In this document: one piece after another, positions 12,489 to 63,657 of the stretch
How positions within the stretch are numbered: position 1 is the first letter of the stretch
Layout: each line of letters begins with the position of its first letter
Source of the DNA: Dehalococcoidia bacterium
Lineage (GTDB): Bacteria; Chloroflexota; Dehalococcoidia; SZUA-161; SpSt-899
Assembly: GCA_048539495.1 (NCBI GenBank)
Contig: JBLYPS010000001.1
Span: 82,038 to 146,037 of the forward strand
DNA: 64,000 nucleotides
Reading direction: 5' to 3'
Notes under the pieces: generated by a model
Told to the model about the DNA's origin: nothing
The model's input: only the letters and a program-made list of their open reading frames with translations
Databases searched by the model: none
Program-made: the position numbers and the translations under genes

Positions 12489-12497
12489 CATGATGAG

Positions 12498-12628
12498 TGA
12501 TCCCGTAGGACGGGCATCTTGCCCGTCAAATGATTAGCAGTGATCCCGTAGGACGGGCATCTTGCCCGTCAAATGATTAGCAGTGATCCCGTAGGACGGG
12601 CATCTTGCCCGTTAATGCCCAATTAGCA
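12498..12628. repeat. three tandem 43-bp units, each carrying a GTAG-headed REP hairpin (GTAGGACGGGCATCTTGCCCGTC)
   Basis: The unit tgatcccgtaggacgggcatcttgcccgtcaaatgattagcag occurs three times; the third copy is slightly diverged. Each has an 8-bp stem with a 3-nt loop. Sits directly upstream of the RAYT gene. Confidence 0.85.
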
Positions 12629-19428: not shown

Positions 19429-21399
<1,971 letters not shown>

Positions 21400-22507: not shown

Positions 22508-22605
22508 CATAAACGGTTCACGGTTCGGGGTTGGGGCTACGTAACCACTGAAGACGGGCAAGATGCCCGTCCTGTTTGAACCTACGAAGTGGGAGGGAGG
22601 CTGGA

Positions 22606-25345: not shown

Positions 25346-27091
25346 GTGGAACGGTACAATCTAAGAATAGGTATCATCGGCGGTGGGCAACTGGGTAAGA
25401 TGATGACCCAGGAAGCGAAGAAGATGGGGTTTTATGTTACCATACTGGACCCCACGCCGAACTCCCCGGCCAGTCAACTGGCTGATGAGCAGCTCGTCGG
25501 CGATTTTCATGACCGGAATAAGATAAGAGAGCTTGTCACCAGGAGCGACGTAACCACCTACGACATCGAAAACATTGACGTAGGTGCCTTAAAAGAGCTC
25601 GTCGAGGCGGGACATGTTATCCACCCTTCTCCACAGATACTGGAGATCATCCAGGACAAGTGGAAACAAAAAAAGGTACTGGAGCGCAGCGGTATCCCTA
25701 TCCCGAGGTACAAGAAGGTCGAGGGGGATGCCCTCGCTGCTGCTGTTGAGGGATTCGGGTTTCCGGTGGTGCAGAAGGCCTGCCGGGGAGGCTATGACGG
25801 GAGGGGGGTATTCGTGATTCGTACCAGAGACGATATAGGAAAGGCACTCAAAGTGGAGTCCTTCCTTGAAGAATTTGTCGAAATCGAGAAGGAGCTCGCG
25901 GTAATGGTGGCAAGGAGTACTACCGGTGAGATCAAATGCTATCCGTTAGTGGAGATGGTCTTCGATGAGGCGGCCAACATCTGCGATATGGTTGTCGCTC
26001 CCGCCCTGGTGGAGCAAAAAATTCAAGACGAGGCCAGGCGAATAGCGGTTGCCGTGGTAGAGCCACTTGGTGGAGCAGGTATCTTTGGGATAGAGATGTT
26101 CTTAAGCAAAGCGGGGAATGTCCTGGTGAACGAGATCGCCCCCCGGCCTCATAATTCGGGGCACTATACCATAGAGGCTTGCGTCACTTCTCAATTCGAA
26201 CAGCACATTCGGGCGATCATGGAACTCCCGTTGGGCTCGACGGAACTGCTCACCCCAGCGGTAATGATCAACATTCTGGGTGAGGAAGGGCATGAGGGGC
26301 CGGCAATATTCCAGGGGATTCGAGAGGCTTTGCTCATCCCTGGAGCGAGTCTGCATCTGTATGGGAAAAGGGTTACCAGACCATTCCGCAAGATGGGACA
26401 TGTAACAGTAGTGGATAAGGACGCCGAGAACGCTTTCGAGAAAGCCCAGAGGATAAAGACACTTCTGCGAGTGGTTTCCTCTGACGAGTCGAGAGTCAAG
26501 AGTCAAGAGTCGAGAGTCGGGGAGGGGCGGGGGACTCCAGACTCCAGACTCCAGACTCCAGACTCCAGACTCCAGACTCGTAAGATGGTGGCAAGGGTAG
26601 GAATCATCATGGGGAGCGAGTCCGACCTCCCGGTGATGGAAGAGGCGGGGAAACTGCTGGAGGAGTTCGGGATTGGCCACGAACTTACCATTGTCTCCGC
26701 CCACCGGACGCCGGAGAGGATGTTTCAATATGCTCGCCAAGCGGAGGGGAAGGGGATTGAAGTGATAATCGCCGGGGCCGGCGGAGCCGCTCATCTCCCC
26801 GGCATGGTGGCCTCAATAACCCCCCTTCCGGTAATCGGTGTGCCGATCGAGACAACCCCCTTGAAAGGGCTGGACTCCCTTTATTCCATCGTCCAAATGC
26901 CGGCAGGAGTCCCGGTGGCGACCGTGGGGATAAATAACGGCCACAATGCCGCAATCCTGGCGATGCAGATTCTGGGGGTGAAGTATCCGCAGATCAGGGG
27001 GAAGGTGAAGGAGTATAAGCAGAGATTGCAGGAGAAAGTCGAGGAGATGGCGCGCAGGGTTGAGCAAAGAAGGAGGCAAGAGGAAGCATGA
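25346..27091 (+). CDS. purK-purE: PurK-PurE fusion: N5-carboxyaminoimidazole ribonucleotide synthase fused to N5-CAIR mutase
   Basis: N-terminal ATP-grasp (IGIIGGGQLGKMM...) followed by PurE (VGIIMGSESDLPVMEEA...GAGGAAHLPGMVAS). The two are joined by a linker encoded by heptamer element 26486..26580. Probable GTG start. Confidence 0.85.
   Translation: MERYNLRIGIIGGGQLGKMMTQEAKKMGFYVTILDPTPNSPASQLADEQLVGDFHDRNKIRELVTRSDVTTYDIENIDVGALKELVEAGHVIHPSPQILEIIQDKWKQKKVLERSGIPIPRYKKVEGDALAAAVEGFGFPVVQKACRGGYDGRGVFVIRTRDDIGKALKVESFLEEFVEIEKELAVMVARSTTGEIKCYPLVEMVFDEAANICDMVVAPALVEQKIQDEARRIAVAVVEPLGGAGIFGIEMFLSKAGNVLVNEIAPRPHNSGHYTIEACVTSQFEQHIRAIMELPLGSTELLTPAVMINILGEEGHEGPAIFQGIREALLIPGASLHLYGKRVTRPFRKMGHVTVVDKDAENAFEKAQRIKTLLRVVSSDESRVKSQESRVGEGRGTPDSRLQTPDSRLQTRKMVARVGIIMGSESDLPVMEEAGKLLEEFGIGHELTIVSAHRTPERMFQYARQAEGKGIEVIIAGAGGAAHLPGMVASITPLPVIGVPIETTPLKGLDSLYSIVQMPAGVPVATVGINNGHNAAILAMQILGVKYPQIRGKVKEYKQRLQEKVEEMARRVEQRRRQEEA
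26486..26580. repeat. heptamer-armed palindromic element: (GAGTCRA)x5, core ggaggggcggggg, then (ACTCCAG)x6
   Basis: Read directly. The arms are reverse-complement related through GAGTC/GACTC. Translated in frame as [37 protein letters not shown]. Confidence 0.85.
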
Positions 27092-27755: not shown

Positions 27756-28865
27756 ATGGCCAGAATCTTAGACGGGTATCAAACGGAGGCGATAAAGGAA
27801 GCGGCATCCCTCATTCAAAAAGGGGGGGTCGTGGCTTTCCCGACGGAGACGGTCCACGGGCTCGGGGCGGATGCCTTCAACCCCAAAGCCGTAGCCCTCA
27901 TTTTCGAAGTTAAGAAGAGACCCCGTTTTGATCCTCTCATCGTCCATATCGCTGAACTTTCCGATGTGAAGAAGGTTTGTCTTCACGCCGATGATCGAGC
28001 AGGGAAAGTGATGGAGTGGTTCTGGCCGGGGCCTTTGACCGTGGTGCTTCCGAAGACGCCGGAGGTGCCGGATATTGTGACGGCGGGACTTCCCACTGTC
28101 GCCGTGCGCTTACCCTCCCATCCGGTTGCCTTAAGCCTCATCCGCGAGGCACGGACGCCCATCGCCGCTCCCAGTGCCAATCTCTTTGGCTATCTCAGCC
28201 CAACGACAGCGGAGCATGTAAATGAGCAGCTCGGCAGCGCAATCGAGATCATCCTCGACGACCAACAGTCGGCAGTCGGCAGTCGGCAGTCCGGGGCGGG
28301 GTGGGGGACTAGCGACTATCGACTATCGACTTGGAATCGAGTGGGGGTGGAGTCCACCATTATTGACCTCTCTGAAGAGGAACCCGTCCTCCTGCGCCCC
28401 GGTGGAACGCCTCTGGAGGAAATCGAGAGGGTCATCGGGAGGGTAAAGATCCCGCCTCATGATCCCCAGCAACCCCGTTCTCCGGGGCAGCTTCCCCATC
28501 ACTATTCCCCCCGCACCCCCCTCAAGATTCTGCTTGATGAAGAATTGAGTATTGAGTATCGAGTTTTGAGTTTTGAGGAGGGGGGAGGGACTCCAGACTC
28601 CAGACTCCAGACTCCAGACTCCAGACTCGAGAGGGTTGGCCTTCTGGCATTCCAACGTCCCCGGGAGGGAGATTTTGCGGCAATTGAAGTTCTTTCCCCC
28701 TCCGGAGACCTCCGTGAGGCGGCGGCGAACCTGTTTGCGGCGCTCCACCGGCTTGATTCTGCCGGACTTGATCTTATCCTCGCCGAACCGGTTCCCGAGG
28801 GGGGGCTCGGCCGGGCGATCATGGATCGACTGCGCCGGGCAAGTGGAGTCCTGAGTCGAAGGTAA
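27756..28865 (+). CDS. tsaC: L-threonylcarbamoyladenylate synthase (TsaC/Sua5 family, with Sua5 C-terminal domain)
   Basis: VAFPTETVHGLGADAF..., PLIVH, GPLTVVL and APSANLFG motifs. It carries two in-frame heptamer elements, at 28267..28333 and 28546..28630. Confidence 0.85.
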   Translation: MARILDGYQTEAIKEAASLIQKGGVVAFPTETVHGLGADAFNPKAVALIFEVKKRPRFDPLIVHIAELSDVKKVCLHADDRAGKVMEWFWPGPLTVVLPKTPEVPDIVTAGLPTVAVRLPSHPVALSLIREARTPIAAPSANLFGYLSPTTAEHVNEQLGSAIEIILDDQQSAVGSRQSGAGWGTSDYRLSTWNRVGVESTIIDLSEEEPVLLRPGGTPLEEIERVIGRVKIPPHDPQQPRSPGQLPHHYSPRTPLKILLDEELSIEYRVLSFEEGGGTPDSRLQTPDSRLERVGLLAFQRPREGDFAAIEVLSPSGDLREAAANLFAALHRLDSAGLDLILAEPVPEGGLGRAIMDRLRRASGVLSRR

Positions 28866-31063: not shown

Positions 31064-31086
31064 TGAGTTTCTATCCGTAAATTAGA

Positions 31087-32826: not shown

Positions 32827-33968
32827 AGGCGATACTGGTATTAGAAGATGGGACGGTGGTTGAGGGAAAGGGATTTGGATCTATTGGCAAAGCCCGGGGA
32901 GAGATCGTCTTCGCCACCGGAATGAGCGGCTACGTTGAATCATTAACTGATCCCTCCTATGCCGGCCAGACGCTGATGTTCACCTACCCCTTGATAGGGA
33001 ATTATGGGGTCAATGAGGAGGACTATGAATCGGATGGAATAAAGGTGGAAGGGATTGTGGTAAGGGAAGTCTGCCACCGGCCGAGCAACTGGAGATCCCA
33101 GAAGAATCTGGAGGAGTTTGCGCTTGAATTCCAGACCCCCGGTATTTGTGGAATCGACACCCGTCGCCTCACCAGAAAGATCAGGACCCATGGAACGATG
33201 AAAAGCGTCCTTCAGACGTTTGCCGGAGGTGAGGAGGTGAACCTGGAGGCTTTGAAGAGGGAAGTTAGGGAACAGAAGGGCATCTCCGAATTGAATCTGG
33301 TGGGGGGAGTCACCACGGTCGGGGCTAAACGAGTCAAGAGTCAAGAGTCGAGAGTCACGGGGAGGGGGACTCCAGACTCTGGACTCTGGACTCTGGACTC
33401 CAGATATGAGGTGGTGCTCGTAGACTGCGGTGCCAAGAGGAGCATCACGGAGAATCTACTGTGCCGGGGAATAAACGTCACCCTTCTTCCTTTCAACACT
33501 TCAGCGGAGGAAATTCTAGGTTATAATCCCGATGCGGTGTTGATTTCCAATGGCCCGGGCGACCCGGCGGTGGTGAAGGAAACCATCGCCACGGTGAGTA
33601 AGCTCATCGGCAAAACCGTGCTTTACGGAATCTGCCTCGGGCAGCAGATCATCTCCCTTGCACTGGGTGCCCGAACATATAAGCTGAAGTTCGGGCATCG
33701 GGGTTTGAATCAGCCGGTGAAAGACTTTGAAACAGGGAGGGTCTTTATTTCCACCCAGAACCACGGCTTCGCCGTTGCCGAGGAGGGGCTGGCGGAAATC
33801 GGGCTCGAGGTGACCCACATCAATCTGAATGATAATACCATTGAGGGCTTGAAACATAAGGAGCTCCCCATCAGAATGGTTCAGTATCACCCGGAAGCCG
33901 GACCCGGCCCGCATGACACCTATTCCTTCTTCGATTCGTTGATGGACGACATTTCCCGGAGGCATTAA
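32823..33968 (+). CDS. carA: carbamoyl-phosphate synthase small subunit (glutamine amidotransferase)
   Basis: MKAILVLEDGTVVEGKGFG.., GICLGQQ (catalytic Cys) and the HPE motif. Heptamer element 33331..33404 lies in frame at the inter-domain linker. Confidence 0.9.
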   Translation: MKAILVLEDGTVVEGKGFGSIGKARGEIVFATGMSGYVESLTDPSYAGQTLMFTYPLIGNYGVNEEDYESDGIKVEGIVVREVCHRPSNWRSQKNLEEFALEFQTPGICGIDTRRLTRKIRTHGTMKSVLQTFAGGEEVNLEALKREVREQKGISELNLVGGVTTVGAKRVKSQESRVTGRGTPDSGLWTLDSRYEVVLVDCGAKRSITENLLCRGINVTLLPFNTSAEEILGYNPDAVLISNGPGDPAVVKETIATVSKLIGKTVLYGICLGQQIISLALGARTYKLKFGHRGLNQPVKDFETGRVFISTQNHGFAVAEEGLAEIGLEVTHINLNDNTIEGLKHKELPIRMVQYHPEAGPGPHDTYSFFDSLMDDISRRH

Positions 33969-34012
33969 GATGCAATGCCGCAAAACAGGAAGTCTGTAAT
34001 GAAAATATATTC

Positions 34013-35482
34013 ATGGGGGATCAAATGACAATAATACCAAAATGCATGAGCACCCAACATCCTGACAATGTGAATCCCCCGTTTTTTGCCGAGAACACTG
34101 TACTTGGCGGAGAGGACGAGATACAAGAAGTATACTATGTCTTTTCTCATTTAGGTTGTGATGAGCAGATGTGGGATTATGAAGGGAAGGAAGTTGATAA
34201 TTATGTAGTTAAAAAACTGTTGACAAGATACGAACCTTTTTTCAGGGATAAAAGACTAGGCAAAGATGTCTTTGTAACCTTAAGAGTGCCTAATCCTACT
34301 GAAGAAAAAGCCGAGGCAAAAATTTTATTGGAAACCCTGGAAAGCATACCCAGGTCATTTGATGCCGCTAAATTATTTTACCGAGATGATACACCTCCAA
34401 TATTCGAGGTTATCTTACCAATGACAGCCTCTCCCGAGTGTATTGATAGGATTTATAGGTATTATTGCGATTTCCTTGTAGGCAGGAGAAATAAACCACT
34501 TAAAAAAGGCGATATAACAATTGCTGAATGGGTTGGAGAATTCAAGCCTGAAAGAATTAACGTCATACCTCTCTTCGAAGACATGAAACACATGCTTGAT
34601 GCCCACAATATAACAAGAACATACTTACAGGACAAGGATTTAGAATACCAGAGAGTTTTTCTGGCACGCTCGGATCCAGCAATGAATTACGGGCTTGTTA
34701 GCACTGTTTTTGTAAATAAAATTGCCCTTCAAAGATTACACAAATTATCTGAGGATATTGGTGTTAAAATATACCCTATCATTGGTATGGGGTCAGCTCC
34801 TTTTAGAGGCAATCTCAAACCACAGACAGTAGAAAGGGTGGCAAAAGAATATCCAAGCATTCATACATTTACCATTCAATCCGCATTTAAATATGACAAC
34901 CACCCTGATGAAGTTAGAGAAGCTATAAGAAAGCTACAAAAAAGAAAAATAGAGCCACCTCAGGAAGTAGATGAGGAGAGATGCTTGGAAATAGTTAGGA
35001 AATGTTCTCAAGAATACCAAACCCAAATAGAAGGATTAGCACCAGTGATCAATGAGGTTGCCAAGTATGTTCCGCCTAGAAGGAAGAGGAAATTACATAT
35101 CGGGCTATTCGGCTATGCCCGTAGTATGAGAGGAATTACATTACCAAGGGCAATAACATTTACCGCCGCCCTTTATTCTATAGGTTTGCCACCAGAAATT
35201 CTTGGTTTGAATGCTTTGGATGAAGGTGACATTCAATTTATTAAGAAGGTTTACGTAAACTTTGAAGATGATTTAAGAGATTCCCTAAAATACGTTAACC
35301 CGGATACAGGTTTCCTACCCCAAAATCTGAAAGCAAGGGTTAGAGATTTTCCGATAGATATCGAAGTTAATGAAGAGCACAAAGAAATAACAGACTATGT
35401 TCTGAGTTCATTAAGAGAAAACAGGGGCGATTTAGGAAATTATGTTTTAAGAGCAGCTAATTTAAGAAAATTCCTTGGATGA
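34013..35482 (+). CDS. ppcA: archaeal-type phosphoenolpyruvate carboxylase (atPEPC/PpcA)
   Basis: The N-terminus ...IPKCMSTQHPDN is diagnostic of atPEPC. About 490 aa. GC is clearly lower than the flanking carA and carB. Confidence 0.8.
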   Translation: MGDQMTIIPKCMSTQHPDNVNPPFFAENTVLGGEDEIQEVYYVFSHLGCDEQMWDYEGKEVDNYVVKKLLTRYEPFFRDKRLGKDVFVTLRVPNPTEEKAEAKILLETLESIPRSFDAAKLFYRDDTPPIFEVILPMTASPECIDRIYRYYCDFLVGRRNKPLKKGDITIAEWVGEFKPERINVIPLFEDMKHMLDAHNITRTYLQDKDLEYQRVFLARSDPAMNYGLVSTVFVNKIALQRLHKLSEDIGVKIYPIIGMGSAPFRGNLKPQTVERVAKEYPSIHTFTIQSAFKYDNHPDEVREAIRKLQKRKIEPPQEVDEERCLEIVRKCSQEYQTQIEGLAPVINEVAKYVPPRRKRKLHIGLFGYARSMRGITLPRAITFTAALYSIGLPPEILGLNALDEGDIQFIKKVYVNFEDDLRDSLKYVNPDTGFLPQNLKARVRDFPIDIEVNEEHKEITDYVLSSLRENRGDLGNYVLRAANLRKFLG

Positions 35483-35619
35483 TGTCCAGACTTTTGTTCG
35501 CTATCGCTCAATACCACACAACACGAAAGGGAAATCATTTATTCAGCCATATGGTTGATAGCCGCAGGGAAAATGAAAGGGAAGGCAACCCAAAATGATA
35601 AAAGACATGGAGGACAGGA

Positions 35620-38469
35620 ATGCCAAGAAGGTCTGATATAGAAAGGATCCTGCTCATCGGGTCCGGCCCGATCATCATCGGGCAGGGCTGCGAGTTCGAT
35701 TACTCCGGGAGCCAGGCTTGCAAGGCGCTGCGGGAGGAGGGCTATGAAGTCATTCTGGTCAATTCGAACCCGGCAACGATCATGACCGACCCGGAGATGG
35801 CAGTGGCGACTTACATCGAACCATTGACCCCAGAGGTGATCGAAAAAATAATCGAGAAAGAAAGACCGGACGCTCTCCTCCCCACCCTCGGCGGTCAAGT
35901 TGGACTGAACATCGCCGCCGAGCTCTCCGAACGGGGAGTCCTCCAGAAATATAACGTGGAGCTTATCGGGGCCAAGTTCGAGGCAATCAGAAAGGCCGAA
36001 GATAGGATTCTCTTCAAGGAGGCAATGGAAAGGATAGGCCTGCGGACTCCGCGGAGCAAAGAGGCTTATTCGGCGGAAGAGGCGACAAAAATTGCCGAGG
36101 AGATCGGCTACCCCGTGGTTATCAGGCCGGCCTACACCCTGGGGGGAACCGGGGGCGGAATAGCCTTCAACCGGGAGGAGCTGGAGGTGATATCCGCCAG
36201 GGGCATAGAGTTCAGCCGCATCGGGCAGGTTCTTATTGAGGAGTCGGTCATCGGTTGGAAGGAATATGAGCTTGAGGTGATGAGGGACCTGGCCGACAAT
36301 GTGGTTATCATCTGCTCGATAGAGAACCTGGACCCCATGGGGGTTCACACCGGCGACAGCATCACCTGCGCTCCAGCCCAGACTTTGACCGACAGGGAAT
36401 ATCAGGAGATGCGCGATGCTTCCATAAAGGTCATGCGAGAAATTGGTGTTGAAACCGGGGGCTCGAATATTCAGTTTGCCGTAAATCCCCAAAACGGAGA
36501 AATGGTAGTCATCGAAATGAATCCCCGGGTGAGCCGAAGCTCCGCCCTAGCATCAAAGGCCACCGGATTCCCCATTGCTAAGATCGCCGCCAAACTCGCC
36601 GTCGGGCTCACCCTGGATGAGATACCGAATGATATAACGAAGGAAACCCCCGCCTCTTTCGAGCCAACCATAGATTATGTAGTGGTCAAGATGCCCCGAT
36701 GGCCCTTCGATAAGTTCCCCGAGGCGGATAAGACGCTCACCACGCAGATGAAATCGATCGGCGAGGCGATGGCACTGGGGAGGACATTTGAGGAAGCCTT
36801 GCAGAAGGCGGTGAGGTCGTTGGAGATCGGGAAGTACGGATTAACGAGTCGAGGGTCAAGAGTCGAGAGTCCAGAATCACGGGGAGAGGGACTCCAGTTG
36901 ACGGGCAAGATGCCCGTCCTACCAGACTCCAGACTCCAGACTCCAGATAGTCTTGGGGAGGAATTGCTCAACAAGCTGAGATTCCCGGTCGCCGAAAGAA
37001 TCTTCCTCGTCGCAGAGGCTTTCAAAAGGGGAATTCGTGTGGAAGAGGTGGCCGAACTCACCAGGATCGACCCCTGGTTTCTGGAGAAGGTCAAGAACAT
37101 CACGAGTCTAGAGTCTAGAGTCGAGAGACTCCAGTTGACGGGCAAGATGCCCGTCCTACCAGACTCCAGACTCCAGACTTCAAATCTCATCCCCCGGGAG
37201 CTAATGCTCGAGGCGAAGAGGATGGGTTTCTCCGATAGACAACTCGCTGATCTCTTGAAGACCGATGAGCTGGAGCTTCGGGGCAAAAGAAAGGAAATGG
37301 GGATAGTTCCAACATATAAGCTGGTGGATACCTGCGCCGCCGAGTTCGAGGCCAAGACTCCTTATTACTACTCTTGTTATGAAGATGAGGATGAAGTCGA
37401 GGTAACGCCAAGAAAGAAAATGCTCATAATCGGCGGGGGGCCGAACAGGATAGGGCAGGGTATTGAGTTTGACTATTGCTGCGTTCAGGCGGTTTTTGCC
37501 CTCAAGGAAGAGGGGTATGAAACCATAATGGTAAATTGCAATCCAGAGACGGTGAGCACAGACTACGACACCGCGGATAGACTATACTTTGAGCCTTTGA
37601 CCTTCGAGGATGTCTTAAACATCATCGAAAAAGAAAAGCCCGATGGAGTGATTGTTCAGTTCGGCGGTCAGACGCCTTTGAATCTGGCTATCCCTCTGGA
37701 GAAAGCGGGGGCGAGAATAATAGGAACCTCCACCAATTCCATTGATATGGCCGAAGATAGAAAAAGATTCAGCGCGCTCTTGCTAAGATTGGGCATTCCT
37801 CAGGCTGAGAATGGGACCGCTCTCTCCCTTGAGGAGGCGCTGAAGATAGCAGCAAGGATTGGTTACCCTGTTCTGGTCAGGCCTTCCTATGTGCTGGGTG
37901 GGAGGGGAATGGAGATAGTTTACGACGAGGAAACTCTGGTGAGGTACATGCGGGCAGCAATAGAAATATCTCCGGGAAAGCCGGTCCTGGTAGACAAGTT
38001 CTTGGAAGAGGCCACCGAGGTTGAGGTGGATGCCATCTTCGATGGGGAGGATCTCATGATCGGAGGGATAATGGAGCACATCGAGGAAGCGGGGATCCAT
38101 TCCGGTGACAGCGCCTGTGCTTTGCCCCCCCAGAACCTGGCCACTGAGACCCTAAGGGTGATAAGGGATTATACCGACAAGATCGCCCGGGAGCTGGATG
38201 TGAGAGGGTTGATGAACATCCAGTTTGCGGTGAAGGACGGGAGGGTGTATGTCCTGGAGGTGAATCCAAGAGCGTCCCGGACTGTGCCCTATATTAGCAA
38301 GGCGAGCGGCGTTCCCCTGGCGAAGATAGCCGCTAAAGTGTTGCTGGGCAAAACCTTAAAGGAACTGGGGGTGATGCGAGTCGAGAGTCGTCGAGAGTCG
38401 AGAGTCGGGGAGGGGTGGGGGACTCCAGAGCGAAGCGTCTCCAGACTCCAGACTCAAAACTTCCTGTAG
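35620..38469 (+). CDS. carB: carbamoyl-phosphate synthase large subunit, N-terminal about 90% (frame ends inside a heptamer element)
   Basis: Both ATP-grasp halves (two GSGPI(V)IGQG.EFDYSG motifs) and the oligomerisation domain, with in-frame elements at 36846..36946 and 37103..37183. The frame terminates at 38469 inside element 38377..38454. Confidence 0.85.
36846..36946. repeat. heptamer-armed element with REP core (TTGACGGGCAAGATGCCCGTCCTAC at 36898..36923) inside carB
   Basis: (GAGTCGAG-type 7-mers), the REP hairpin with its CTAC tail, then (AGACTCC)x3. In frame: [36 protein letters not shown]. Confidence 0.85.
37103..37183. repeat. second heptamer-armed element with REP core (37135..37160) inside carB
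   Basis: gagtctagagtctagagtcgag, then the REP, then agactccagactccagact. In frame: [26 protein letters not shown]. Confidence 0.85.
38377..38454. repeat. degenerate heptamer-armed element at the carB frameshift point
   Basis: gagtcgagagtcgtcgagagtcgagagtc, core ggggaggggtggggg, then gactccagagcgaagcgtctccagactccagactc. The arm units are irregular. The two carB ORFs overlap here in different frames. Confidence 0.8.
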
Positions 38470-39182
38470 CGGTAAAGGAGGCCGTTTTCCCGTTCTCCAA
38501 GTTCCCCGAAGTGGATCCGATCCTCGGTCCGGAGATGAAATCGACCGGCGAGGTGATGGGAATCGATGCCGACTTCGGTGTAGCTTTCTACAAGGCTCAG
38601 CTCGGTGCCGGAATGAATCTACCTGCTGAAGGCACGGTGCTCATCACGATCGCCGATAAGGATAAAGCGCGAGTAGTTCCGGTCGCCAGAAAATTCCAGG
38701 AGCTAGGCTTCGAGATCCTGGCCACCTCGGGAACTCAGGCTTGTCTCTCGGACCACGGAATCGAAAGCAAGAAGGTCTTCAAGATTCACGAGGGGAGGCC
38801 GCACATCGTGGATTACGTGAAGAACAAAATGGTGGACATAATCATAAACACCCCGCTGGGCAAAAAGGCAAGATACGACGATAGTTATATCAGAAAATCA
38901 GCGGTGCGGTACAACGTTCCCTATTTCACCACCGTCTCCGGGGCGGGGGCGGCGGTGATGGGGATAGAGGCGATAAAGAACCAAAAGGTGTTTTTCGAGC
39001 CTATACAAACATATCATGCCAAAACGAGTCGAGAGTCTAGAGTCGAGAGTCGGGGAGGGGTGGGGGACTCCAGACTCCAGACTCGAAAGGGGGAGGAACC
39101 TAATGCGCAGCGATACGTTGAAAAAAGGTCTGCAACGGGCACCGCATCGGTCACTACTCAAGGCTTGTGGGGTGATGGATGA
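38415..39182 (+). CDS. carB: carbamoyl-phosphate synthase large subunit, C-terminal MGS-like domain fragment (separate frame)
   Basis: After the element: [43 protein letters not shown]...MGS domain. The likely biological end is near 39030 (EPIQTYHAK). The open frame runs through element 39026..39086 into ilvD. Confidence 0.7.
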
Positions 39183-40752
39183 AGATATGGAGAAACCCTT
39201 CATTGCGGTGGTAAATTCATGGACCGAGATAGTGCCCGGACATATTCATCTTCGGGGGATAGCCGATGCCGTGAAAGAGGGCATAAGAGAGGCCGGGGGA
39301 CTGCCCTTCGAGTTTCACACCATCGCCGTATGCGATGGCCTGGCCATGGGGCACGATGGGATGCGATATTCCCTGCCATCGCGGGATGTTATCGCCAACT
39401 CCATCGAAATAATGGTGAGGGCCCATGCCCTGGACGGGATGGTGATGATCCCCGCCTGTGATGAGATCGTTCCCGGACACTTGATGGCAGCAGGCCGATT
39501 GGATATCCCCACCATCGTGGTTACCGGGGGGCCGATGTTGCCGGGGGAGTTCAAGGGCAAGAATGTGGATATAATTGATGTCTTCGAGGCGGTGGGCATG
39601 GTCAGCGATGGTAAGATGGGGATGGATGATCTAAAGGAGTTAGAGGGCTGTGCCTGCCCTGGTGCCGGGACCTGCGCCGGGATGTTTAGTGCCAATACCC
39701 TGGCCTGTGGGGTGGAGGCCCTCGGTCTGTCGCTGCCCGGTTGTGGTTGTGCCCACGCCGTGGATGCCAGAAAGATAAGGATTGCCCGGCAAAGCGGGAA
39801 GGAGATTGTGAGCCTGACAAGCCGTAATATCACCGCCAGAGAGATAATGACTTACGAAGCCTTTCTTAACTGGATCCGGGTGTCCCTGGCGGTAGCGGGG
39901 TCAACCAACGATGTGCTGGAGATACTGGCGATCGCCAGGGAAACCGGGATTGAGATGTCCCTAGATATATTCGATGAGCTGAGTAGAACCACCCCACATA
40001 TCTGCAATATGCGCCCCGGCGGCTCGTATACCTTGTGGGACCTGGATAGGGCGGGCGGGGTTCCGGCGATAATGAAACGGCTTGAGCCGCTGCTGAACCT
40101 GGAGTGTCTTACGGTTAGCGGCAGGACCGTGGGTGAAAACATCGCCTCGGTGAAGATCGCTAACGAGGATGTGATCAGGCCCCTCGACAATCCCGTTCAT
40201 GGTAGCGGTGGGTTAGCCATACTCTACGGAAGCCTGGCTCCTAAAGGGGCGGTAGTGAAACAGACAGCGGTGGTAGAGAGTATGCTACGAACAAGAGGGC
40301 GGGCTCGGGTCTTTGACTCCGAGGAGGAGGCTTTTGAGGCGATAACCGGCGGGAAGATACATCGAGGCGATGTGGTGGTTATTCGCTACGAAGGCCCGAA
40401 GGGGGGGCCGGGGATGAGGGAGATGCTTGGTCCCACCTCGGCTATCAGCGGCAGAGGGCTTGCCGACTCCGTGGCACTGGTCACCGATGGCAGATTCTCG
40501 GGCGGAACCCGTGGTCCGTGTATCGGACACATATCGCCTGAAGCGGCCGAGGGAGGGCCGATCGCCCTTGTTGCCGAGGGCGACTATATTTCTATAGACA
40601 TCCCCAACCGCCGGATAGACCTGGAGATCGACCAGACCGAATTTGAGAAGCGCAAAAGGGATTGGCGGCCCAGGAAAAAGGAGGTCAGGGGATACCTGCG
40701 GGAATATAGACAGGGTTGCTTGAGCCCCGAGCATGGTGCTAGCATGAAATAG
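39098..40752 (+). CDS. ilvD: dihydroxy-acid dehydratase
   Basis: [23 protein letters not shown]... and CDGLAMGH motifs. RBS gggagga lies before the ATG at 39098. The track ORF starts earlier by reading through element 39026..39086. Confidence 0.9.
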
Positions 40753-40907
40753 TCTGGAGTCTGGAGTCTGAAGTCCCCCTTTAGCCTTCAGCCTATCCAC
40801 CTGACTTGACTCTTGACTCGCATTGGGGGTGAGAGCTTTGGGAAATGCATAGGTGAAATCTGAACATAAATCAGAGGTAAAGCCAAAAACTAAGGAGGTC
40901 AAAAGAA

Positions 40908-49151: not shown

Positions 49152-49358
49152 AGGTTCAAAGTTCCAGGGTTCGCAATTAGCGTGTAGCGCATAGCGTGTA
49201 GGTAGTAGGGGGGTAGGGAGGCTACACGTTACCTGCTGCCCCCTACACACTACCCAGCAGACAACCTTAAACCGTGAACCCGATACGTGAACCTGACAAC
49301 CTGAGTAGTTACAAGCCAGCCAAGTTGTAGCCTGGAACGATAGCGAGTATAATCTGAA

Positions 49359-57025: not shown

Positions 57026-57702
57026 ACACCTCAACCAGGGTTGCCAGCCTGGCGCTATCGAATAGAGGCGCTCTCATCGCAGAAATCACCTGGTATGCAG
57101 GACAGAATCATACTGTGGAGCTTATTCCCAACGTGATTTCCCTCCTCGAACAGCGCAAGGCGCATATCCACGATATCGAGAGCATCATAGTGGCCAGGGG
57201 GCCGGGCAGCTTTAACGGGCTGCGAGTGGGAATAGCCACCGCCAAGGGGTTGGCATTCGCTCTGGGCATTCACCTGGTCGGGATAAGCACATTGGAGGTG
57301 TTGGCCTTCCCGTACGCTGACGTGGGCTTTCCTGTTTGCCCCATCCTGAATGGTGGACGAGGCGAGATCGCCACCGCACTGTTTCGAAAACGGAAAGGGC
57401 ATTGGGAAAGGCTCACTGTGGAGCACACCACCACCATTAGTGATCTCTGCTCCCAGATTGGGCAGCGAACCATATTCTGCGGCGAGATCAGCAATGAGCA
57501 GCGGATGCAGCTTGAGCAGCAACTGGGGAAGAAGGCATTGATTGTAAAGGGATCAGCCACGCTCCGGAGGGCGGGCTGCCTTGCCGAACTTGGCTGGCAC
57601 AGGATGGAATCGGGTGACTTCGACGATCCCTTCACCCTCCAACCATTGTACTTGAAGAGTCCAGCGATCACCGTTCCCAAAAAGCCACTGAGAAGTGGGT
57701 AA
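57010..57702 (+). CDS. tsaB: tRNA t6A37 biosynthesis protein TsaB (YeaZ)
   Basis: MELAIDTSTRVASLAL...ARGPGSFNGLRVGIATAKG. Confidence 0.9.
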   Translation: MELAIDTSTRVASLALSNRGALIAEITWYAGQNHTVELIPNVISLLEQRKAHIHDIESIIVARGPGSFNGLRVGIATAKGLAFALGIHLVGISTLEVLAFPYADVGFPVCPILNGGRGEIATALFRKRKGHWERLTVEHTTTISDLCSQIGQRTIFCGEISNEQRMQLEQQLGKKALIVKGSATLRRAGCLAELGWHRMESGDFDDPFTLQPLYLKSPAITVPKKPLRSG

Positions 57703-58137
57703 TGGGTAATAGGTAATAGGTAATGGGGAGACTACTATATGCTACACGCTAGTTACTACATCACAAATACCACCAAATCGTTGACACTTTTGGAGACATT
57801 AAGAAGTCTCACCAAGCGTTGACACATGGACATTCGTCCCATGGGGTGCTTTAATTATACATTATCTCAGCCAGCGTTGACACCCTAGACATCTATGGGT
57901 AGAGGGTATGGGAAAGTCTCTACCAAGTGATTGCCATGTCTAATTTGGAGTATATGTGCGTCGGTGCAGATTGTTGCCTTGACATATTCATAAACAAGAT
58001 CCTTAGAAACAGTAAACTTCTCTCCAAAGATGTTTAATTCTGGATCGCTGCGGATGAACCTGAAGAAATGGACATAACCGTCTTCAATGGGTATTTTATC
58101 CCTGGACAACTGGAATGTGTTTGGCAAGATAAAAGTG

Positions 58138-60510: not shown

Positions 60511-60572
60511 AAGTGGGAGAGATTTCCTGATCTCGATCTCCCCTGGGAAAGGACTCCCACTCAACTAAGGAG

Positions 60573-60652
60573 TGATTAGTAATTAGTGATTGGTGGTACG
60601 CGGCTGGGGTTTTGGAGCAACCACCAATTACCAATCACCAATCACTTTATAA
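60573..60652. repeat. heptamer-armed element: (GTGATTA/GTAATTA/GTGATTG), core gtggtacgcggctggggttttggagcaaccac, then (CAATTAC/CAATCAC x2)
   Basis: Read directly. Intergenic between the hypothetical gene and pncA-pncB. Confidence 0.75.
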
Positions 60653-62251
60653 TACCCGCTTCAGCCTGGGGTTGGGGGTGATACCGGGGATTCTGCCTCG
60701 CTTGGCGATGGGCTTACCTTCAACCTCGTGCAGATCGGCGGTGAAATTGATCGGCCTGGTATCGCTGATATAGCTTCCCACGGCAAAGGTATCGACCGGT
60801 GCCCCACTGTCCAGGAAGTATCTGATTCGCTCCGGGTCGATGCCCCCGCTGACGTATATCCTGACATCCTTGAAACCGGCAAGGTCAAGCCTGGCCCTGG
60901 TCTCCTTTACCAGATCGGCGGTGACCCGGCCTCTTTCGGAAGGCGTATCGAGCCTTATCCCCTGCAGCCTTCCACCCATTGCCCGGGCTACGATGATGCT
61001 CTCCTCGGGCTCGTCGCGGAAGGTATCTACCAAGGCAATGCGGGGTACCTCCGGGGGCATGTGCTTGTCAAAAGCGAGGGTGGCCCTGGCGGTGTCACCC
61101 ATGACTATGATCAGGGCGTGAGGCATGGTGCCCATCGGCTCCTGTCCGGCAAGCTTAGCGCCGGCTGTAGAGGCACAGCCGCCACATCCCCCGACGATGG
61201 CAGCGTACTCCATTACCCCAACTACCGAGGGGTGAACATGGCGAGCACCAAAGCTGATGACCGGGATTCCCTGGGCCGCTTGCACGCACTCCCGAGCAGC
61301 AGTGGCCCAGCCGCTGCAATGCGCCAGAATACCCAGATAGACGGTCTCATATATGGCATAAGATTGATAGGGCGCAGTTATGCGCAACACCACTTCTTTT
61401 TTCTGGAAGGAGTCTCCCTCAGAGAGAGCCCATACCTCGATGGGGTCTGAAGTCTGGAGTCTGGAGTCTGGAATCCCCCTCCCCTCGACTCTTGACTCTT
61501 GACTCTTGACTCTTGACTCTTGACCGGTAAGCACCCGGGAAAGCAGGTCGAGAACTTCATGCATGCCGCAGAGGATACCCTCACTCCTGGGAAAGACCTC
61601 CATGGTGGCAACCGGATTGAGTCCCTCGCGCTTGAGGATTTCTTTGGTGCGCACAAAGTAGATGTCGGTGGTCTCGCCGGAGAGGACGGACTCCGCGACC
61701 GTAAAGTGAGGACGGGGGATTTCCAGTGGCGTCGGCGGGATGAGTTTGGCGCCGAGGATTCTTTCCATGTGATCGAGGGCGAAACGGTGTGCTTGTTGAT
61801 CCATAGAGGCCACGCAGTCGGTGGGAACTTCGACCGTGTAGCCGCGGTTTCTGGCATCGGCGACGGTATGCAGAACGCAGATGTTGGTGCAAACGCCGCA
61901 GACGATGAGCTTCTCCGGTGCCAGCTCCTTTAGTTTCCCTTCGAGCGCGCTCTCGAAGAAACCGCTGAATCGATTCTTGGGGATGATCTCGCCGGGAATC
62001 GCAGCCAGCTCGGGGATGACCTCGGCTTCTCCTGTTCCGGCGATGCAGTGGGGAGGGAACATCTCGAATTCGAGGTCGTCCGGGGTATGATTATCGCAGA
62101 TAAAGAAAACCCTGGACCCCTGAGATAATTCTTGTTCTAACCGTCTCTTAACATTCGGAATGATATTGCGTGCTAAATCGCCACAATAAAGGGGGTATCC
62201 TTTCTCCAGGAAGCCCCTTAGCATGTCTATCACAAGCACTGCAGTAGTCAT
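60647..62251 (-). CDS. pncA-pncB: nicotinamidase (isochorismatase-fold, PncA) fused to nicotinate phosphoribosyltransferase (PncB)
   Basis: N-terminus: AVLVIDMLRGF...KLIVCGVCTNICVLHT (catalytic Cys) ..YTVEV. C-terminus: NAPRTase-like (...GTMPHALII...YVSGGID...). The two are joined by a linker encoded by element 61447..61524 ([24 protein letters not shown]). Confidence 0.8.
   Translation of the reverse strand: MTTAVLVIDMLRGFLEKGYPLYCGDLARNIIPNVKRRLEQELSQGSRVFFICDNHTPDDLEFEMFPPHCIAGTGEAEVIPELAAIPGEIIPKNRFSGFFESALEGKLKELAPEKLIVCGVCTNICVLHTVADARNRGYTVEVPTDCVASMDQQAHRFALDHMERILGAKLIPPTPLEIPRPHFTVAESVLSGETTDIYFVRTKEILKREGLNPVATMEVFPRSEGILCGMHEVLDLLSRVLTGQESRVKSQESRVEGRGIPDSRLQTSDPIEVWALSEGDSFQKKEVVLRITAPYQSYAIYETVYLGILAHCSGWATAARECVQAAQGIPVISFGARHVHPSVVGVMEYAAIVGGCGGCASTAGAKLAGQEPMGTMPHALIIVMGDTARATLAFDKHMPPEVPRIALVDTFRDEPEESIIVARAMGGRLQGIRLDTPSERGRVTADLVKETRARLDLAGFKDVRIYVSGGIDPERIRYFLDSGAPVDTFAVGSYISDTRPINFTADLHEVEGKPIAKRGRIPGITPNPRLKRVL
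61447..61524. repeat. heptamer-armed element (reverse orientation) inside pncA-pncB: (AGTCTGG)x3, core aatccccctcccc, (TCGACTC/TTGACTC)x6
   Basis: Read directly. In frame on the minus strand. Confidence 0.85.
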
Positions 62252-62334
62252 ATCGTGCCTTTGGCTAGCGTGTAGCCCCACCCTCCCTACACGCTATACG
62301 CTATACGCTAACGTGCGCTACACGCTAATCTAGC

Positions 62335-63576: not shown

Positions 63577-63657
63577 CGATGTCTCCTCGGGTAGCGTGTA
63601 GTTAGGTAGCGGGTAGCCTCCCCACTCCCCTGCACGCTACACGCTATGCGCTACACG

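Follow-up and report, generated by a model that had tools for sequence, protein, structure and literature searches.

The 64 kb stretch of a Dehalococcoidia MAG analysed here (the window) raises the question of what the short arrays of 7-nt units are that recur both in its spacers and inside housekeeping genes, how they came to be there and what they mean for the encoded proteins. A preliminary description of this DNA had proposed a family of more than 20 palindromic "mini-elements" of fixed construction and varying heptamers, each composed of a left arm of tandem units, a short core and a right arm of reverse-complement units.

The Heptamer-Armed Family in the Window

Tandem Repeats Finder reports about 45 period-7 arrays in the window. 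Our own tract scan found 25 period-7 tracts and two of period 10 in the same DNA, and zero at periods 4–6, 8, 9, 11, and 12, against a mean of 0.1 period-7 tracts (maximum 1) in 50 dinucleotide-preserving shuffles. Most tracts are inverted arm pairs around a G-run core (GGGGAGGGGNGGGG), forming elements of 60–110 bp overall which, for the listed elements combined, occupy 2.8% of the window (Table 1). An alignment of 11 copies has the conserved centre GAGGGGNGGGGGACTCCAGACTCCAG, and many copies have a common centre together with CGAGTC...GACTCG ends. The flavours differ wholly in arm sequence while the architecture is constant, and the G-run core is common to flavours with unrelated arms.

Heptamer arrays are present at all 22 positions named in the preliminary description, as it had stated, and two roughly complementary arms flanking a short core occur at 18 of them; those at 10583, 16908, 42520, and 57700 are one-armed or have a second arm that is not complementary. 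In the RNA folding that it had proposed, these 18 elements form interrupted hairpins of 63–109 nt with z mostly from -3 to -8 (relative to mononucleotide shuffles); together with the tract excess, this bears out the family and its construction. Other details had to be revised. The right arm is not simply built of reverse-complement heptamers, the main-family arms GAGTCGA and GACTCCA being complementary at just 5/7 positions; chimeric elements with non-complementary arms also occur (57700, 27637, and L001 near position 20255). The REP hairpin, formerly regarded as an alternative core, is an element in its own right that occurs in nested position (GTAGGACGGGCATCTTGCCCGTC), and the segment 33331–40821 holds six copies rather than seven: one in carA, three in carB, one at the carB 3' end/ilvD start and one overlapping the ilvD stop.

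Table 1. Elements and related repeats of the Dehalococcoidia MAG window (64 kb); all coordinates are window positions.
Position	Strand	Element	Location and remarks
1528..1600	.	GGTTCAA/TTGAACC flavour	Intergenic; two adjacent hairpins, z -5.5
10583..10625	-	Half element, (GGAGTCG)x5 + CCCCCTCCC	Alanyl-tRNA synthetase catalytic domain, in frame
12496..12612	+	43-nt unit, 2.7 tandem copies	Downstream of alaS; GTAG-tagged REP hairpin GTAGGACGGGCATCTTGCCCGTC in each unit
22510..22585	.	GGTTCAC flavour, core GGTTGGGGCTACGTAACC	Intergenic; nested REP-like hairpin 22553-22575
26485..26580	+	Main family	purK/purE junction; net +93 nt; junction empty in L001
27634..27727	.	Composite: (GTGATTA)2, core GGGGCTGGTGGGGG, (GTAAATT)n/(AATTTAC)n palindrome	Intergenic, greA-sua5
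28266..28333	+	CAGTCGG/CGACTAT flavour, core GGGGCGGGGTGGGGG	Sua5/TsaC, YrdC-Sua5_C linker, in frame
28544..28634	+	GAGTATT/GAGTTTT left arm, GACTCCA right arm	Inside Sua5_C domain, in frame
33330..33404	+	Main family: (GAGTCAA/GAGTCGA)x4, core ACGGGGAGGGGG, (GACTCTG/GACTCCA)x5	carA
36845..36947	+	Main family	carB site 1, first ATP-grasp/oligomerisation domain boundary
37103..37179	+	G-run core absent	carB site 2, inside oligomerisation domain
38377..38456	+		carB site 3, between second ATP-grasp domain and MGS-like allosteric domain
39022..39089	+	Main family	carB 3' end, just upstream of ilvD Shine-Dalgarno and ATG (39103)
40751..40820	-	Main family, reverse orientation; core degenerate	First unit overlaps ilvD stop codon
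41832..41893	.	TAGCGTG/CACGCTA flavour	Intergenic, just past sppA-like gene; z -6.4
49176..49260	.	TAGCGTG/CTACACG flavour, G-run core	Intergenic
57696..57760	.	One-armed/chimeric array, (GGTAATG/GGTAATA)x4 + GGGGAG	Downstream not complementary; z -0.3
60571..60646	.	GTGATTA/CAATCAC flavour	Intergenic, between two minus-strand genes; z -4.6 and -7.7
61441..61526	-	Main family	Isochorismatase + nicotinate/quinolinate phosphoribosyltransferase-like (NAPRT-like) gene, in frame
62262..62340	.	CTACACG/CTATACG flavour, C-run core CCCCACCCTCCC	Intergenic
63588..63662	.	GGTAGCG/CACGCTA flavour, C-run core CCTCCCCACTCCCC	Intergenic

Copies in carA, carB, and ilvD

The carA element leaves the ORF continuous and contributes about 25 residues, which separate CPSase_sm_chain from GATase (Pfam domains at residues 5–129 and 198–374). 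It folds with -43.6 kcal/mol (z -7.5). By BLAST coordinates the window is 51 nt longer than L001 at this site, and L004 has a shorter version of the element.

At carB site 1, which contains a nested GTAG-type REP hairpin (36900–36922), relatives range from an empty site (L003) through a mini version of 2 + 1 units (L001) to the full element, with a nested composite in L004; the net gain over L003 is 90 nt and the reading frame is kept. The right half of the site 2 element, including its nested REP (37137–37159), is identical over 53 nt to the site 1 element, and the identity takes in both the REP and odd junction bases, which shows that at least one composite was duplicated whole at a new position, 257 nt from the other. 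Site 2 is empty in L001, L003, and L004 (net +45 nt in the window). Here 27 native nt have been replaced by the left arm with length unchanged; the native sequence, GGAGATCGAGAGA, is arm-like, and the new left arm, GAGTCTA, is nearer to the right-arm complement than is the family norm.

The site 3 element, with a nested 16-nt unit (AGCGAAGCGTCTCCAG, 38429–38444), corresponds to an empty site in L001 and to elements of other flavours in L003 and L004, that of L003 resembling the 28544..28634 element. A 17-nt arm expansion (38378–38394) shifts the carB frame in the window, where the ORF is interrupted at 38469 and continues in a different frame; L002, 99.5% identical, is without exactly those 17 nt and has carB in frame. 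Over 4.2 kb this is the sole indel between the two; its length, 10 + 7 nt, is not divisible by 7.

With a MAG as the source and the only frameshifting difference located in a repeat arm, a type of sequence in which assemblers make mistakes, the elements might be suspected of being artefacts of sequencing or of assembling repetitive DNA from short metagenome reads, a possibility which, for assembly, the preliminary description had raised. This explanation is exceedingly improbable, given that GCA_018725425 and BBPD, BBPE, and BBPG contigs carry the same elements with matching unit numbers, that identical copies exist at three sites in three other assemblies (L002, L123, and L124/L126), that four other genomes have related elements at the same positions and that heptamer hairpins have been found in over 100 genomes, which stem from many projects.

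At the carB 3' end a 68-nt insertion (2 mod 3) has moved the ancestral TAATG stop/start overlap into another frame, with the result that the CarB ORF extends to 39182; the L001 carB/ilvD junction, compared with the window, reads CATGCCAGGGGAGGAAACTAATG. An identical copy of this element is present in the metagenome contig L123, and L004 carries a (GAGGCTG)3(TAGCCTA)3 element at the equivalent place. The element overlapping the ilvD stop is absent from the corresponding L001 sequence.

Copies in Other Genes and Their Translation

At the purK/purE junction the element has taken the place of both the native Shine-Dalgarno sequence and the stop codon and joins PurK to PurE in one open frame (PurK domains and AIRC in a single 637-codon frame by translation and Pfam); the metagenome contigs L124 and L126 have the unit numbers of the window. 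Both sua5 sites are empty in L001, each with a net gain of 66 nt. The element of the NAPRT-like gene is flipped with its minus-strand gene, bringing the G-run core again onto the coding strand, and the half element of the alanyl-tRNA synthetase gene has a C-rich core on the coding strand.

At least 15 gene-internal copies, from the window and from related or other loci, keep the frame and one does not; the copies are stop-free, and their length relative to the empty site is almost always a multiple of 3. They lie in interdomain linkers or permissive loops (CarA, CarB, Sua5, AlaRS, and the NAPRT-like protein), the points of insertion being located between Pfam domains. Being in frame and stop-free, they are therefore taken to be translated and not spliced out, the ribosome reading them as Ser/Arg/Glu/Gly/Pro-rich loops (e.g., ESRVESR-GEGxG-TPDSRLQ). 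The contrary view, that they are intervening sequences whose RNA hairpin is excised or translationally bypassed, leaving insert-free proteins and a functional product of the frameshifted carB, is very improbable. It would accommodate the splitting of carB into two frames exactly at an element, the stable hairpin in each element and the 2 mod 3 length of the carB-end copy, but the frame constraint on all other gene-internal copies would be needless if they were removed, two alleles (L125 and L127) differ at one locus by exactly three units (21 nt) with both in frame, L002 has the same carB element in frame, the window version differing by a 17-nt arm expansion, and there is no match to an intron, a ribozyme or any other Rfam family.

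Variation among Relatives

Most of the corresponding positions are unoccupied in relatives with about 86% DNA identity, empty sites being present in L001, L003, and L004, and archaeal CarB is also without inserts. Because of these empty sites the elements are, on the alignments, lineage-specific insertions and not conserved linkers. The preliminary description had read the carA and carB copies as insertions and had named conserved linkers as the competing possibility; the carA/carB orthologues of relatives and archaea lack the periodic segments, which agrees with the former. Comparison of orthologous sites likewise shows gain, loss, lengthening and shortening of elements among close relatives.

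Intergenic Copies and Nested Repeats

Thirteen copies lie in short intergenic spacers, several beginning at or just past a stop codon. These sites also vary: the greA-sua5 spacer of L001 has unrelated sequence instead of the composite, and the L001 orthologue of the element past the sppA-like gene has kept the right arm and has a different left arm, (GGGATAA)3. Two kinds of small repeats are nested in elements, the GTAG-type REP and a 16-nt GCGAAGC-containing unit; the REP hairpin has seven copies in the window against 0 expected. IS607-like and IS21-like elements are also present in the window.

The spacer positions and strong folds, the A-runs and T-runs which flank some Acidobacteriota hairpins in the manner of bidirectional terminators, and the regulatory roles proposed for heptamer repeats of Nostoc and Beggiatoa would be in keeping with functional cis-elements under selection (terminators/attenuators, mRNA stabilisers or protein-binding arrays of 7-nt units), the genic copies being by-products. 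Such a role is nevertheless distinctly unlikely as the general explanation: a T4 run follows only 15 of 140 pairs, copies inside essential genes could not be terminators, the elements match no Rfam family, and presence and flavour are not stable among genomes with about 86% identity, nor even inside a single species.

Heptamer Repeats in Other Genomes and Known Systems

A genome scan found heptamer-armed hairpins in Acidobacteriota, Planctomycetota, and further phyla, including (TGGAGTC)n-loop-(GACTCCA)n hairpins in several phyla outside that of the window, and long (GACTCCA/GACTCCT)n arrays in cyanobacterial MAGs. Where hairpins of other phyla have the same arms, their loops are unrelated. 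Period-7 tracts number 386 in 809 kb from other phyla, versus at most 28 at any other period, and across genomes left and right arm lengths are correlated (r = 0.41, p = 4e-7, n = 140 pairs).

Elements with 7-nt periodic inverted arms had been thought undescribed; inverted heptamer pairs of Xanthomonas (PMC4692102) and the long-known heptamers of cyanobacterial STRRs (short tandemly repeated repetitive sequences) are in fact precedents. Xanthomonas genomes contain 70–75 convergent inverted GGGAATC heptamer pairs each, and GGGGA(C/T)T repeats occur in Nostoc (Rehm et al., 2015, PMC4692102). The Xanthomonas pairs resemble the window elements in their tandem 7-nt units, close convergent arrays on opposite strands and stem-loop potential, in a per-genome number of pairs between dozens and about 75, in a repeat length that varies between related genomes while the repeat type is kept, and in being mostly intergenic with some in coding regions (PMC4692102). 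They differ in having one G-rich unit, which was studied for G-quadruplex formation and the origin of which was left unexplained; the Xanthomonas study describes no conserved core, many-flavour family or nested REPs and does not analyse copies that lie in frame within housekeeping proteins. The STRRs likewise have several heptamers per genome and variable copy number, but are described mainly as direct tandem arrays and not as cored hairpins or in-frame protein inserts. In the RNase P RNA gene they reportedly extend helix P12. STRR heptamers are tolerated inside this functional gene (Vioque, 1997).

The analogy to Rickettsia palindromic elements (RPEs) drawn in the preliminary description holds as a likeness in behaviour: these are palindromic, inserted in frame in unrelated housekeeping genes and translated, and are thought to be tolerated through landing in permissive parts of the fold (reviewed in PMC10969869). 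RPEs are, however, about 150 bp long, have a unique conserved sequence and peptide per family, lack tandem-unit arms and are confined to Rickettsia, whereas the window elements (60–110 bp) have microsatellite arms and peptides that follow simply from the heptamers. REP, BIME, and REPIN sequences, marked by GTAG or CGTC tags, are also short, abundant hairpin repeats (Di Nocera et al., 2013, PMC3733652; Bertels and Rainey, 2011, PMC3116915). The description of GTAG-tagged REPs applies to the nested hairpin GTAGGACGGGCATCTTGCCCGTC; the heptamer-armed elements have neither tag, are not extragenic and have stems made of tandem repeats. The overall design, in which a variable centre lies between inverted arms made of short tandem repeats in varying number, is shared with another group of elements.

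These are the Foldback (FB) transposons of Drosophila, which differ from the window elements in being eukaryotic and kilobase-sized, with 10–31 bp units and in some cases coding capacity. The likeness does not imply homology.

Origin of the Elements

The elements might be classical non-autonomous transposable elements (MITE, REP or REPIN-like), heptamer slippage being a secondary decoration, mobilised by an enzyme encoded elsewhere that reads the hairpin or termini, e.g., a Y1 transposase of RAYT or IS200-IS605 type acting on single-stranded hairpins. In favour are the conserved centre and ends of many copies, the composite with its nested REP duplicated as a unit, the same protein loops struck independently in different lineages, the IS607-like and IS21-like elements of the window and the seven GTAG-tagged REPs, a RAYT substrate class (PMC3733652), which suggest such an enzyme in the genome. 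The three flavours at one carB site in three lineages could also reflect repeated targeted insertion by an enzyme instead of seeding. The transposon-like nature implied by "mini-element" could nonetheless not be established, and transposition is unlikely: neither target-site duplications nor a constant flanking motif was found at seven compared boundaries, native sequence is replaced and not displaced, arm sequences are wholly different between flavours of constant architecture and change flavour at a fixed site, the loops of same-arm hairpins in other phyla are unrelated, and the roughly 50 window ORFs include none in which a Y1 or RAYT domain was found (nor was a RAYT gene seen in the window).

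We consider that the elements are probably non-coding foldback microsatellites, grown by slippage and hairpin-templated copying and filtered by selection; for this genome the model draws on the 64 kb window of assembled sequence. Replication slippage in 7-nt steps would lengthen and shorten the arms, polymerase slippage having been proposed for heptamers by Mrazek (as quoted in PMC4679880), while intrastrand, hairpin-templated strand switching would make the second arm or keep it similar and, in doing so, would overwrite adjacent native sequence rather than duplicate a target. New sites may be seeded where native sequence is arm-like, via microhomology-mediated template switching to an existing copy, and purifying selection would then purge every frame- or fold-breaking insertion. 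No host benefit would be required, the elements being self-propagating or neutral DNA with protein side effects.

Several features sit less easily with the foldback model. Simple hairpin-templated copying does not predict arms of 5/7 complementarity, so that selection against perfect mRNA hairpins must be assumed; certain elements are chimeras whose arms do not complement each other; the G-run core common to unrelated-arm flavours has no explanation in it; and the carB change is 10 + 7 nt.

The window elements represent a novel form of bacterial heptamer repeat, a class that is poorly understood, with precedents in the Xanthomonas pairs, the STRRs and the RPEs, and through their in-frame copies the products of essential genes, those of carA and carB among them, acquire floppy loops.

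Reality and architecture of the repeats

The heptamer repeats form a real and striking family. About 45 period-7 arrays were identified in the window with Tandem Repeats Finder, and in a simple tract scan of the same sequence period 7 accounted for 25 tracts and period 10 for 2, with none at periods 4–6, 8, 9, 11, and 12; 50 shuffles that preserve dinucleotides gave 0.1 period-7 tracts on average and never more than 1. An inverted or ambiguous partner was assigned to 22 of 37 tracts in the window. Each element (61–103 nt) has an array of 7-nt units on either side of a short, G-run-rich core, the units of the second array being roughly complementary to those of the first; the convergent complementary arrays lie within about 100 nt of each other and are able to form a stem-loop, as do inverted pairs of heptameric simple sequence repeats (SSR). 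Single-strand folds give hairpins of 63–109 nt in which helices of 5–6 bp are split by 1x1 or 2x2 internal loops (z-scores mostly −3 to −8, on both strands). A role of these hairpins as functional terminators or as arrays bound by a protein is improbable. Across genomes a T-run follows only 15 of 140 arm pairs, and on this ground the terminator idea was rejected as a general explanation.

The multi-copy arrangement of heptamer arm, core and heptamer arm reported in the preliminary description was seen across 33200–41000 and at the 22 positions listed there. All 22 carry heptamer arrays, the copies at 10583, 16908, 42520, and 57700 being one-armed or chimeric and lacking two complementary arms, and six copies rather than seven were counted in 33331–40821. 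The observation is confirmed and the interpretation attached to it is partly supported.

In an alignment of 11 copies the main family reads (GAGTCNA)n-GAGTCG-GGGAGGGGNGGGGG-ACTCCAG-(ACTCCAG)n, conservation being highest at the centre and where the right arm begins. Other flavours, i.e., classes of arm-unit sequence (CAGTCGG, TAGCGTG, GGTTCAC, GTGATTA, and GTAAATT), have unrelated arms and similar G-run or C-run cores; these units, GGTAATG and the GAGTCGA/GACTCCA pair of the main family are the arm units present in the window. The G-run core lies on the coding strand in all gene-internal main-family copies except that in alaS, including the flipped copy in a minus-strand gene. A G-quadruplex is a less likely reading, with just three G-runs in the core. 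GANTC, the site class of HinfI/CcrM-type methylases and GAGTC-specific nicking enzymes, is present in all main-family units, as either GAGTC or GACTC. The idea of a restriction target avoided elsewhere was discarded, since the observed/expected ratio of GAGTC outside the elements is 0.95 and gives no signal of avoidance.

Two further repeats are nested in the elements. The REP hairpin, previously regarded as an alternative core, is a separate repeat of 23 nt (GTAG-tagged and REP-like, GTAGGACGGGCATCTTGCCCGTC) with 7 copies in the window versus 0 expected. This hairpin fits the GTAG-tagged REP class whereas the heptamer-armed elements do not, as the only tag within them is that of the nested hairpin; REPs are imperfect palindromes of 20–40 nt with GTAG or CGTC at the head. 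No RAYT gene was found in the 64-kb window, nor any Y1 transposase among its genes. The second is a 16-nt unit, AGAGCGAAGCGTCTCC, nested in right arms in up to three tandem copies, which contains GCGAAGC, the sequence of a very stable DNA mini-hairpin. Coordinates are collected in the table.

Features of the window and of related loci, with net length differences between occupied and empty sites
Feature	Position	Strand	Net difference from empty site (nt)	Remarks
Element in carA	33330		+51	
Element at carB site 1	36845		+90	
Element at carB site 2	37103		+45	
Element at carB site 3	38377		+54	Difference as in L002
Elements in sua5			+66	Each of two sites
Element at purK/purE junction	26485–26580		+93	
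carB ORFs	35620–38469; 38415–39182			Two frames
GTAG-tagged REP-like hairpins	12496–12612			3 copies in a perfect 43-nt tandem array downstream of alaS
GTAG-tagged REP-like hairpins	22553–22575; 23071–23093			
GTAG-tagged REP-like hairpins	36900–36922; 37137–37159			Nested in carB elements
16-nt AGAGCGAAGCGTCTCC unit	38429–38444			Single copy
16-nt AGAGCGAAGCGTCTCC unit	~1771–1818 of L121			3 tandem copies
16-nt AGAGCGAAGCGTCTCC unit	~4060–4100 of L004			
IS607-like pair	23533–25340			Serine recombinase and TnpB/OrfB_IS605
IS21-like pair	58034–59909			IstA-like and IstB
Fused restriction-methylase	51983–55591			MmeI/Eco57I-type, 1202 residues
Cobalamin riboswitch	7177–7315	−		Upstream of minus-strand ABC transporter and cobalamin genes
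tRNA-His	16999–17074	+		Just downstream of the (CTCTAAA)n array

Occupied and empty sites in related loci

Four related loci were compared with the window in protein and DNA alignments, namely L002, which is 99.5% identical in DNA, and L001, L003, and L004, at about 82–90%. At carB site 1, L003 is empty, L001 has a mini-element of 2+1 units and L004 a nested composite; site 2 is empty in L001, L003, and L004, and at site 3 L001 is empty while L003 and L004 hold elements of other flavours. L001 is also empty at both sua5 sites, at the purK/purE junction and at the carB end, and has no recognisable element at the carA site, where the sequence resembles a decayed arm and may be the relic of an element. 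Archaeal CarB proteins (~70% identical) are likewise devoid of the carB insert segments. The empty sites in relatives and in archaeal CarB agree with the earlier reading of the copies as insertions; since the segments do not behave as conserved linkers, the elements are lineage-specific additions.

Assembly artefacts are an extremely improbable source of the elements, which recur in independent sequences: L002 reproduces the four carB elements apart from a 17-nt arm difference, and the carB-end and purK/purE copies are reproduced in the metagenome contigs L123, L124, and L126.

Copies inside genes

In-frame copies occur in carA, carB (two, and a third in frame in L002), Sua5 (two), AlaRS and an NAPRT-like gene. 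All tabulated net length differences are multiples of 3, and the frame is also kept by the copies in alaS and the minus-strand NAPRT-like gene, by those in L001, L003, L004, and the further locus L121, and by one in a Pyrinomonadaceae histidine kinase. A 7-nt unit encodes the same cyclic 7-residue peptide whichever frame is read, and all six frames of the main-family units, read directly, are free of stop codons. The inserts, of about 25 low-complexity residues, are positioned between Pfam domains or at domain edges. An AlphaFold model of the 949-residue CarB ORF (10-sequence alignment, mean pLDDT 56) was of insufficient quality for use; its lowest-confidence coil segments include the three insert regions but also many native ones.

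Judged from the sequence, the gene-internal copies are translated and not removed. RNA excision or translational bypass would leave the inserts without a frame constraint, yet both frame and freedom from stops are constrained, and the site-3 element of carB is in frame in L002; on these two observations, the frame constraint and the L002 allele, the intron/bypass idea was rejected as very improbable. A search of Rfam gave no match to the elements. Introns, inteins and bypass elements are characterized by removal, lack of a frame constraint and catalytic motifs, and the present elements are not of that kind.

The single gene-internal exception to frame keeping is carB site 3 of the window, where 17 extra nt (10+7) in the left arm (38378–38394) split carB into two frames. 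Over 4.2 kb, the window differs from the 99.5% identical L002 by 5 substitutions and a single indel, this expansion, which L002 lacks and which may be a real allele or an assembly error. A metagenome scan for site-3 alleles (flanks plus variable gap) returned no matches. The public annotation names the truncated 949-residue ORF carbamoyl-phosphate synthase large subunit; the ORF is identical to a protein of a Dehalococcoidia MAG, encoded on a contig of 153,950 bp.

Gene boundaries are altered at two other copies. The carB-end copy (39022–39089) measures 68 nt, not a multiple of 3; the ancestral TAATG, in which stop and start overlap, is thereby moved out of frame and the CarB ORF extends 79 nt into ilvD. 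At the purK/purE junction the purK stop codon is lost to the element, as is the Shine-Dalgarno sequence of purE; with the stop removed, one open frame runs from PurK through PurE, an arrangement found with the same unit numbers in L124 and L126. One unit more or fewer in this element would put the TAA of ...GACTCGTAAGATG in frame.

Junctions, copying and change of arms

No target-site duplication was found at the boundaries of the seven copies compared with empty sites, native sequence being replaced instead. At carB site 2 the left arm has overwritten 27 native nt without altering the length; the GGAGATCGAGAGA native to this place resembles an arm, and the new left-arm unit GAGTCTA is 6/7 complementary to the right arm, versus a family norm of 5/7. 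The elements at sites 1 and 2 share 53 identical nt, including the REP hairpin and idiosyncratic junction bases, and because of this identity and of the empty site 2 in every relative, the site-2 composite most likely arose in one piece by copying from 257 nt upstream. L001 and the window have the same right arm but different left arms ((GGGATAA)3 vs. TAGCGTG-type) in the spacer that follows the sppA-like gene. At one locus represented in two samples, the alleles (L125 and L127) differ by exactly three units (21 nt). The loci compared thus display gain, loss and whole-unit change, a composite copied as a unit, native flanks overwritten and flavour changed in place, as well as filtering by reading frame and by place in the protein.

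Mobilization by a hairpin-recognising transposase is an unlikely explanation. The CGAGTC...GACTCG ends are terminal inverted repeats such as those of MITEs (in practice the whole arm is an inverted repeat) and IS607-like and IS21-like genes, though no Y1 transposase, are present in the window; the replacement of native sequence without target-site duplication at the seven compared copies argues against this reading.

Heptamer hairpins in other phyla

One genome per species was scanned for (GACTCCA)2.7, which yielded at least 116 loci; these are thus selected on the GACTCCA unit. The matches listed belong mainly to Acidobacteriota (Pyrinomonadaceae, Blastocatellia, Chloracidobacterium), Planctomycetota, Gemmatimonadota, Bacteroidota, and cyanobacteria; many of these are perfect (TGGAGTC)n-loop-(GACTCCA)n hairpins with unrelated loops, and the cyanobacterial ones are long direct arrays. 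The 809 kb of matches listed contain 386 period-7 tracts, 227 of them with other units, and at most 28 tracts of any other period; an inverted partner lies within 120 nt for 256 of 480 tracts, and left and right arm lengths correlate (r = 0.41, p = 4e-7). The share of tracts in frames open for at least 300 nt on both sides is 38% for the window, against 47% among Dehalococcoidia relatives and 11% elsewhere. Only metagenome contigs (BBPD–BBPG) from the same project as L004 gave matches to the main-family signature of core plus arm.

In-frame heptamer hairpins are not confined to Dehalococcoidia, since a GAF-PAS-HisKA-HATPase sensor kinase of a Pyrinomonadaceae MAG (L023, 4800–6623) carries an in-frame (GAGTCTG)n...(GACTCCG)n hairpin between PAS and HisKA. 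Four acidobacterial loci (L018, L025, L030, L064) contain several (TGGAGTC)n-loop-(GACTCCA)n hairpins with an A-run upstream, a T-run downstream and an inner GTCAAAAG/CTTTTGAC stem, which look like bidirectional intrinsic terminators with heptamer-extended stems.

Gene context

The window encodes ordinary housekeeping functions and more, among them cobalamin genes, alaS, aroE, aroC, uvrB, purK, purE, greA, sua5, carA, carB, ilvD, an sppA-like gene, selA, tsaE, tsaB, glyA, and two restriction-modification loci. The (CTCTAAA)n array overlaps the end of the chorismate synthase ORF. Between carA and carB lies a 489-aa ORF (34013–35482) that we take, from its N-terminal sequence, to be an archaeal-type phosphoenolpyruvate carboxylase-like protein and for which a look-up of identical proteins gave no match; in L001 carA and carB overlap directly, and this gene was therefore inserted or lost in one lineage. 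Outside close Dehalococcoidia the best matches of CarB (35620–39182) are archaeal, at ~68–70% identity (Bathyarchaeia, Nitrososphaerota, Archaeoglobus), which suggests inter-domain transfer of carB. A restriction-modification island (29476–31728; N6/N4 DNA methylase with EcoO109I-like and TdeIII-like endonucleases) lies, together with a 133-aa ORF (28872–29273), between sua5 and the next conserved gene and is absent in L001. Pentamers of the GGNCC type are depleted in the window (observed/expected 0.67–0.72), consistent with an active restriction-modification system.

Relation to known repeats and possible origin

Bacterial heptamer repeats have been known since 1990, and heptanucleotide repeats are reported as the most abundant class of long SSR in most genomes. 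The preliminary description was aware of no described element with 7-nt periodic inverted arms; the GGGAATC inverted heptamer pairs of Xanthomonas are such elements and provide the closest description, alike in their convergent, stem-loop-capable arrays, although the described SSR/STRR units (GGGAATC, GGGGAYT, CCCCAGT, and others) differ from those in the window. Next closest are the cyanobacterial STRRs and the (GATAGRA)n heptamer satellites of Chloroflexus. The analogy with Rickettsia palindromic elements (RPEs) holds for behaviour inside genes, both being palindromic and inserted in frame in protein-coding genes, but RPEs are set apart by description, with ~150 bp and family-specific conserved sequence and peptide, in Rickettsia (PMC10969869), against shorter elements with tandem-heptamer arms in a Dehalococcoidia host. 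A full-text literature search returned no description of the arm sequences, the encoded peptide, in-frame heptamer hairpins, or palindromic or heptamer insertions in Dehalococcoidia/Chloroflexi, and neither "heptam" nor "tandem repeat" occurs in the text of a 2024 review of prokaryotic MITEs. The family falls within known kinds (heptamer repeat pairs and in-frame palindromic elements) and is not a new category.

We infer that the elements are probably foldback microsatellites, shaped by slippage, hairpin-templated copying, microhomology seeding and selection. The opposite arm would be made and homogenised by intrastrand, hairpin-templated strand switching, which corrects quasipalindromes in E. 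coli, and arms would lengthen and shorten through slippage in 7-nt steps. A general heptamer bias of bacterial polymerases has been proposed by Mrazek (as quoted in a passage of PMC4679880). New sites would derive from microhomology-mediated switching to an existing copy, and of the inserts only those that keep the frame, have no stop and sit in linkers would survive selection. This model leaves unaccounted for the G-run core common to the flavours, the chimeric elements and, in the main family, the systematic 5/7 complementarity.

A more speculative proposal, to which only a low probability is given, is that heptamer-armed hairpins are the product of a dedicated DNA-level process, common to distant phyla, that spreads foldback repeats without a transposase. 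Such a process might consist in a particular polymerase or repair complex extending hairpin primers 7 nt at a time, or in the combination of a nicking enzyme and polymerase amplification at GAGTC-type sites. If true, a dedicated process would, in some lineages such as this Dehalococcoidia clade, be active enough to remodel essential proteins through added linkers, the purK-purE fusion and carB frameshift alleles, and the hairpins would represent a novel class of self-assembling genomic repeats and also a novel source of bacterial protein innovation.

Significance

Dozens of heptamer hairpins with empty, short, long and changed forms in close relatives make this genome a set of natural experiments on the origin and the 7-nt step of heptamer repeats, and for the many copies in essential genes the reading frame and the protein fold constitute a built-in selection filter. 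Arm growth, the origin of the second arm and the seeding of new sites become testable with population metagenomes. Gene callers and pseudogene filters will mis-handle such loci, as with the CarB annotated here as a 949-residue protein. In-frame colonisation of genes is mainly known from Rickettsia, aside from examples in the 2024 review of prokaryotic MITEs; the elements show how, through non-coding repeats, enzymes gain linkers, adjoining genes become fused and frameshift alleles arise in a free-living, uncultivated lineage.
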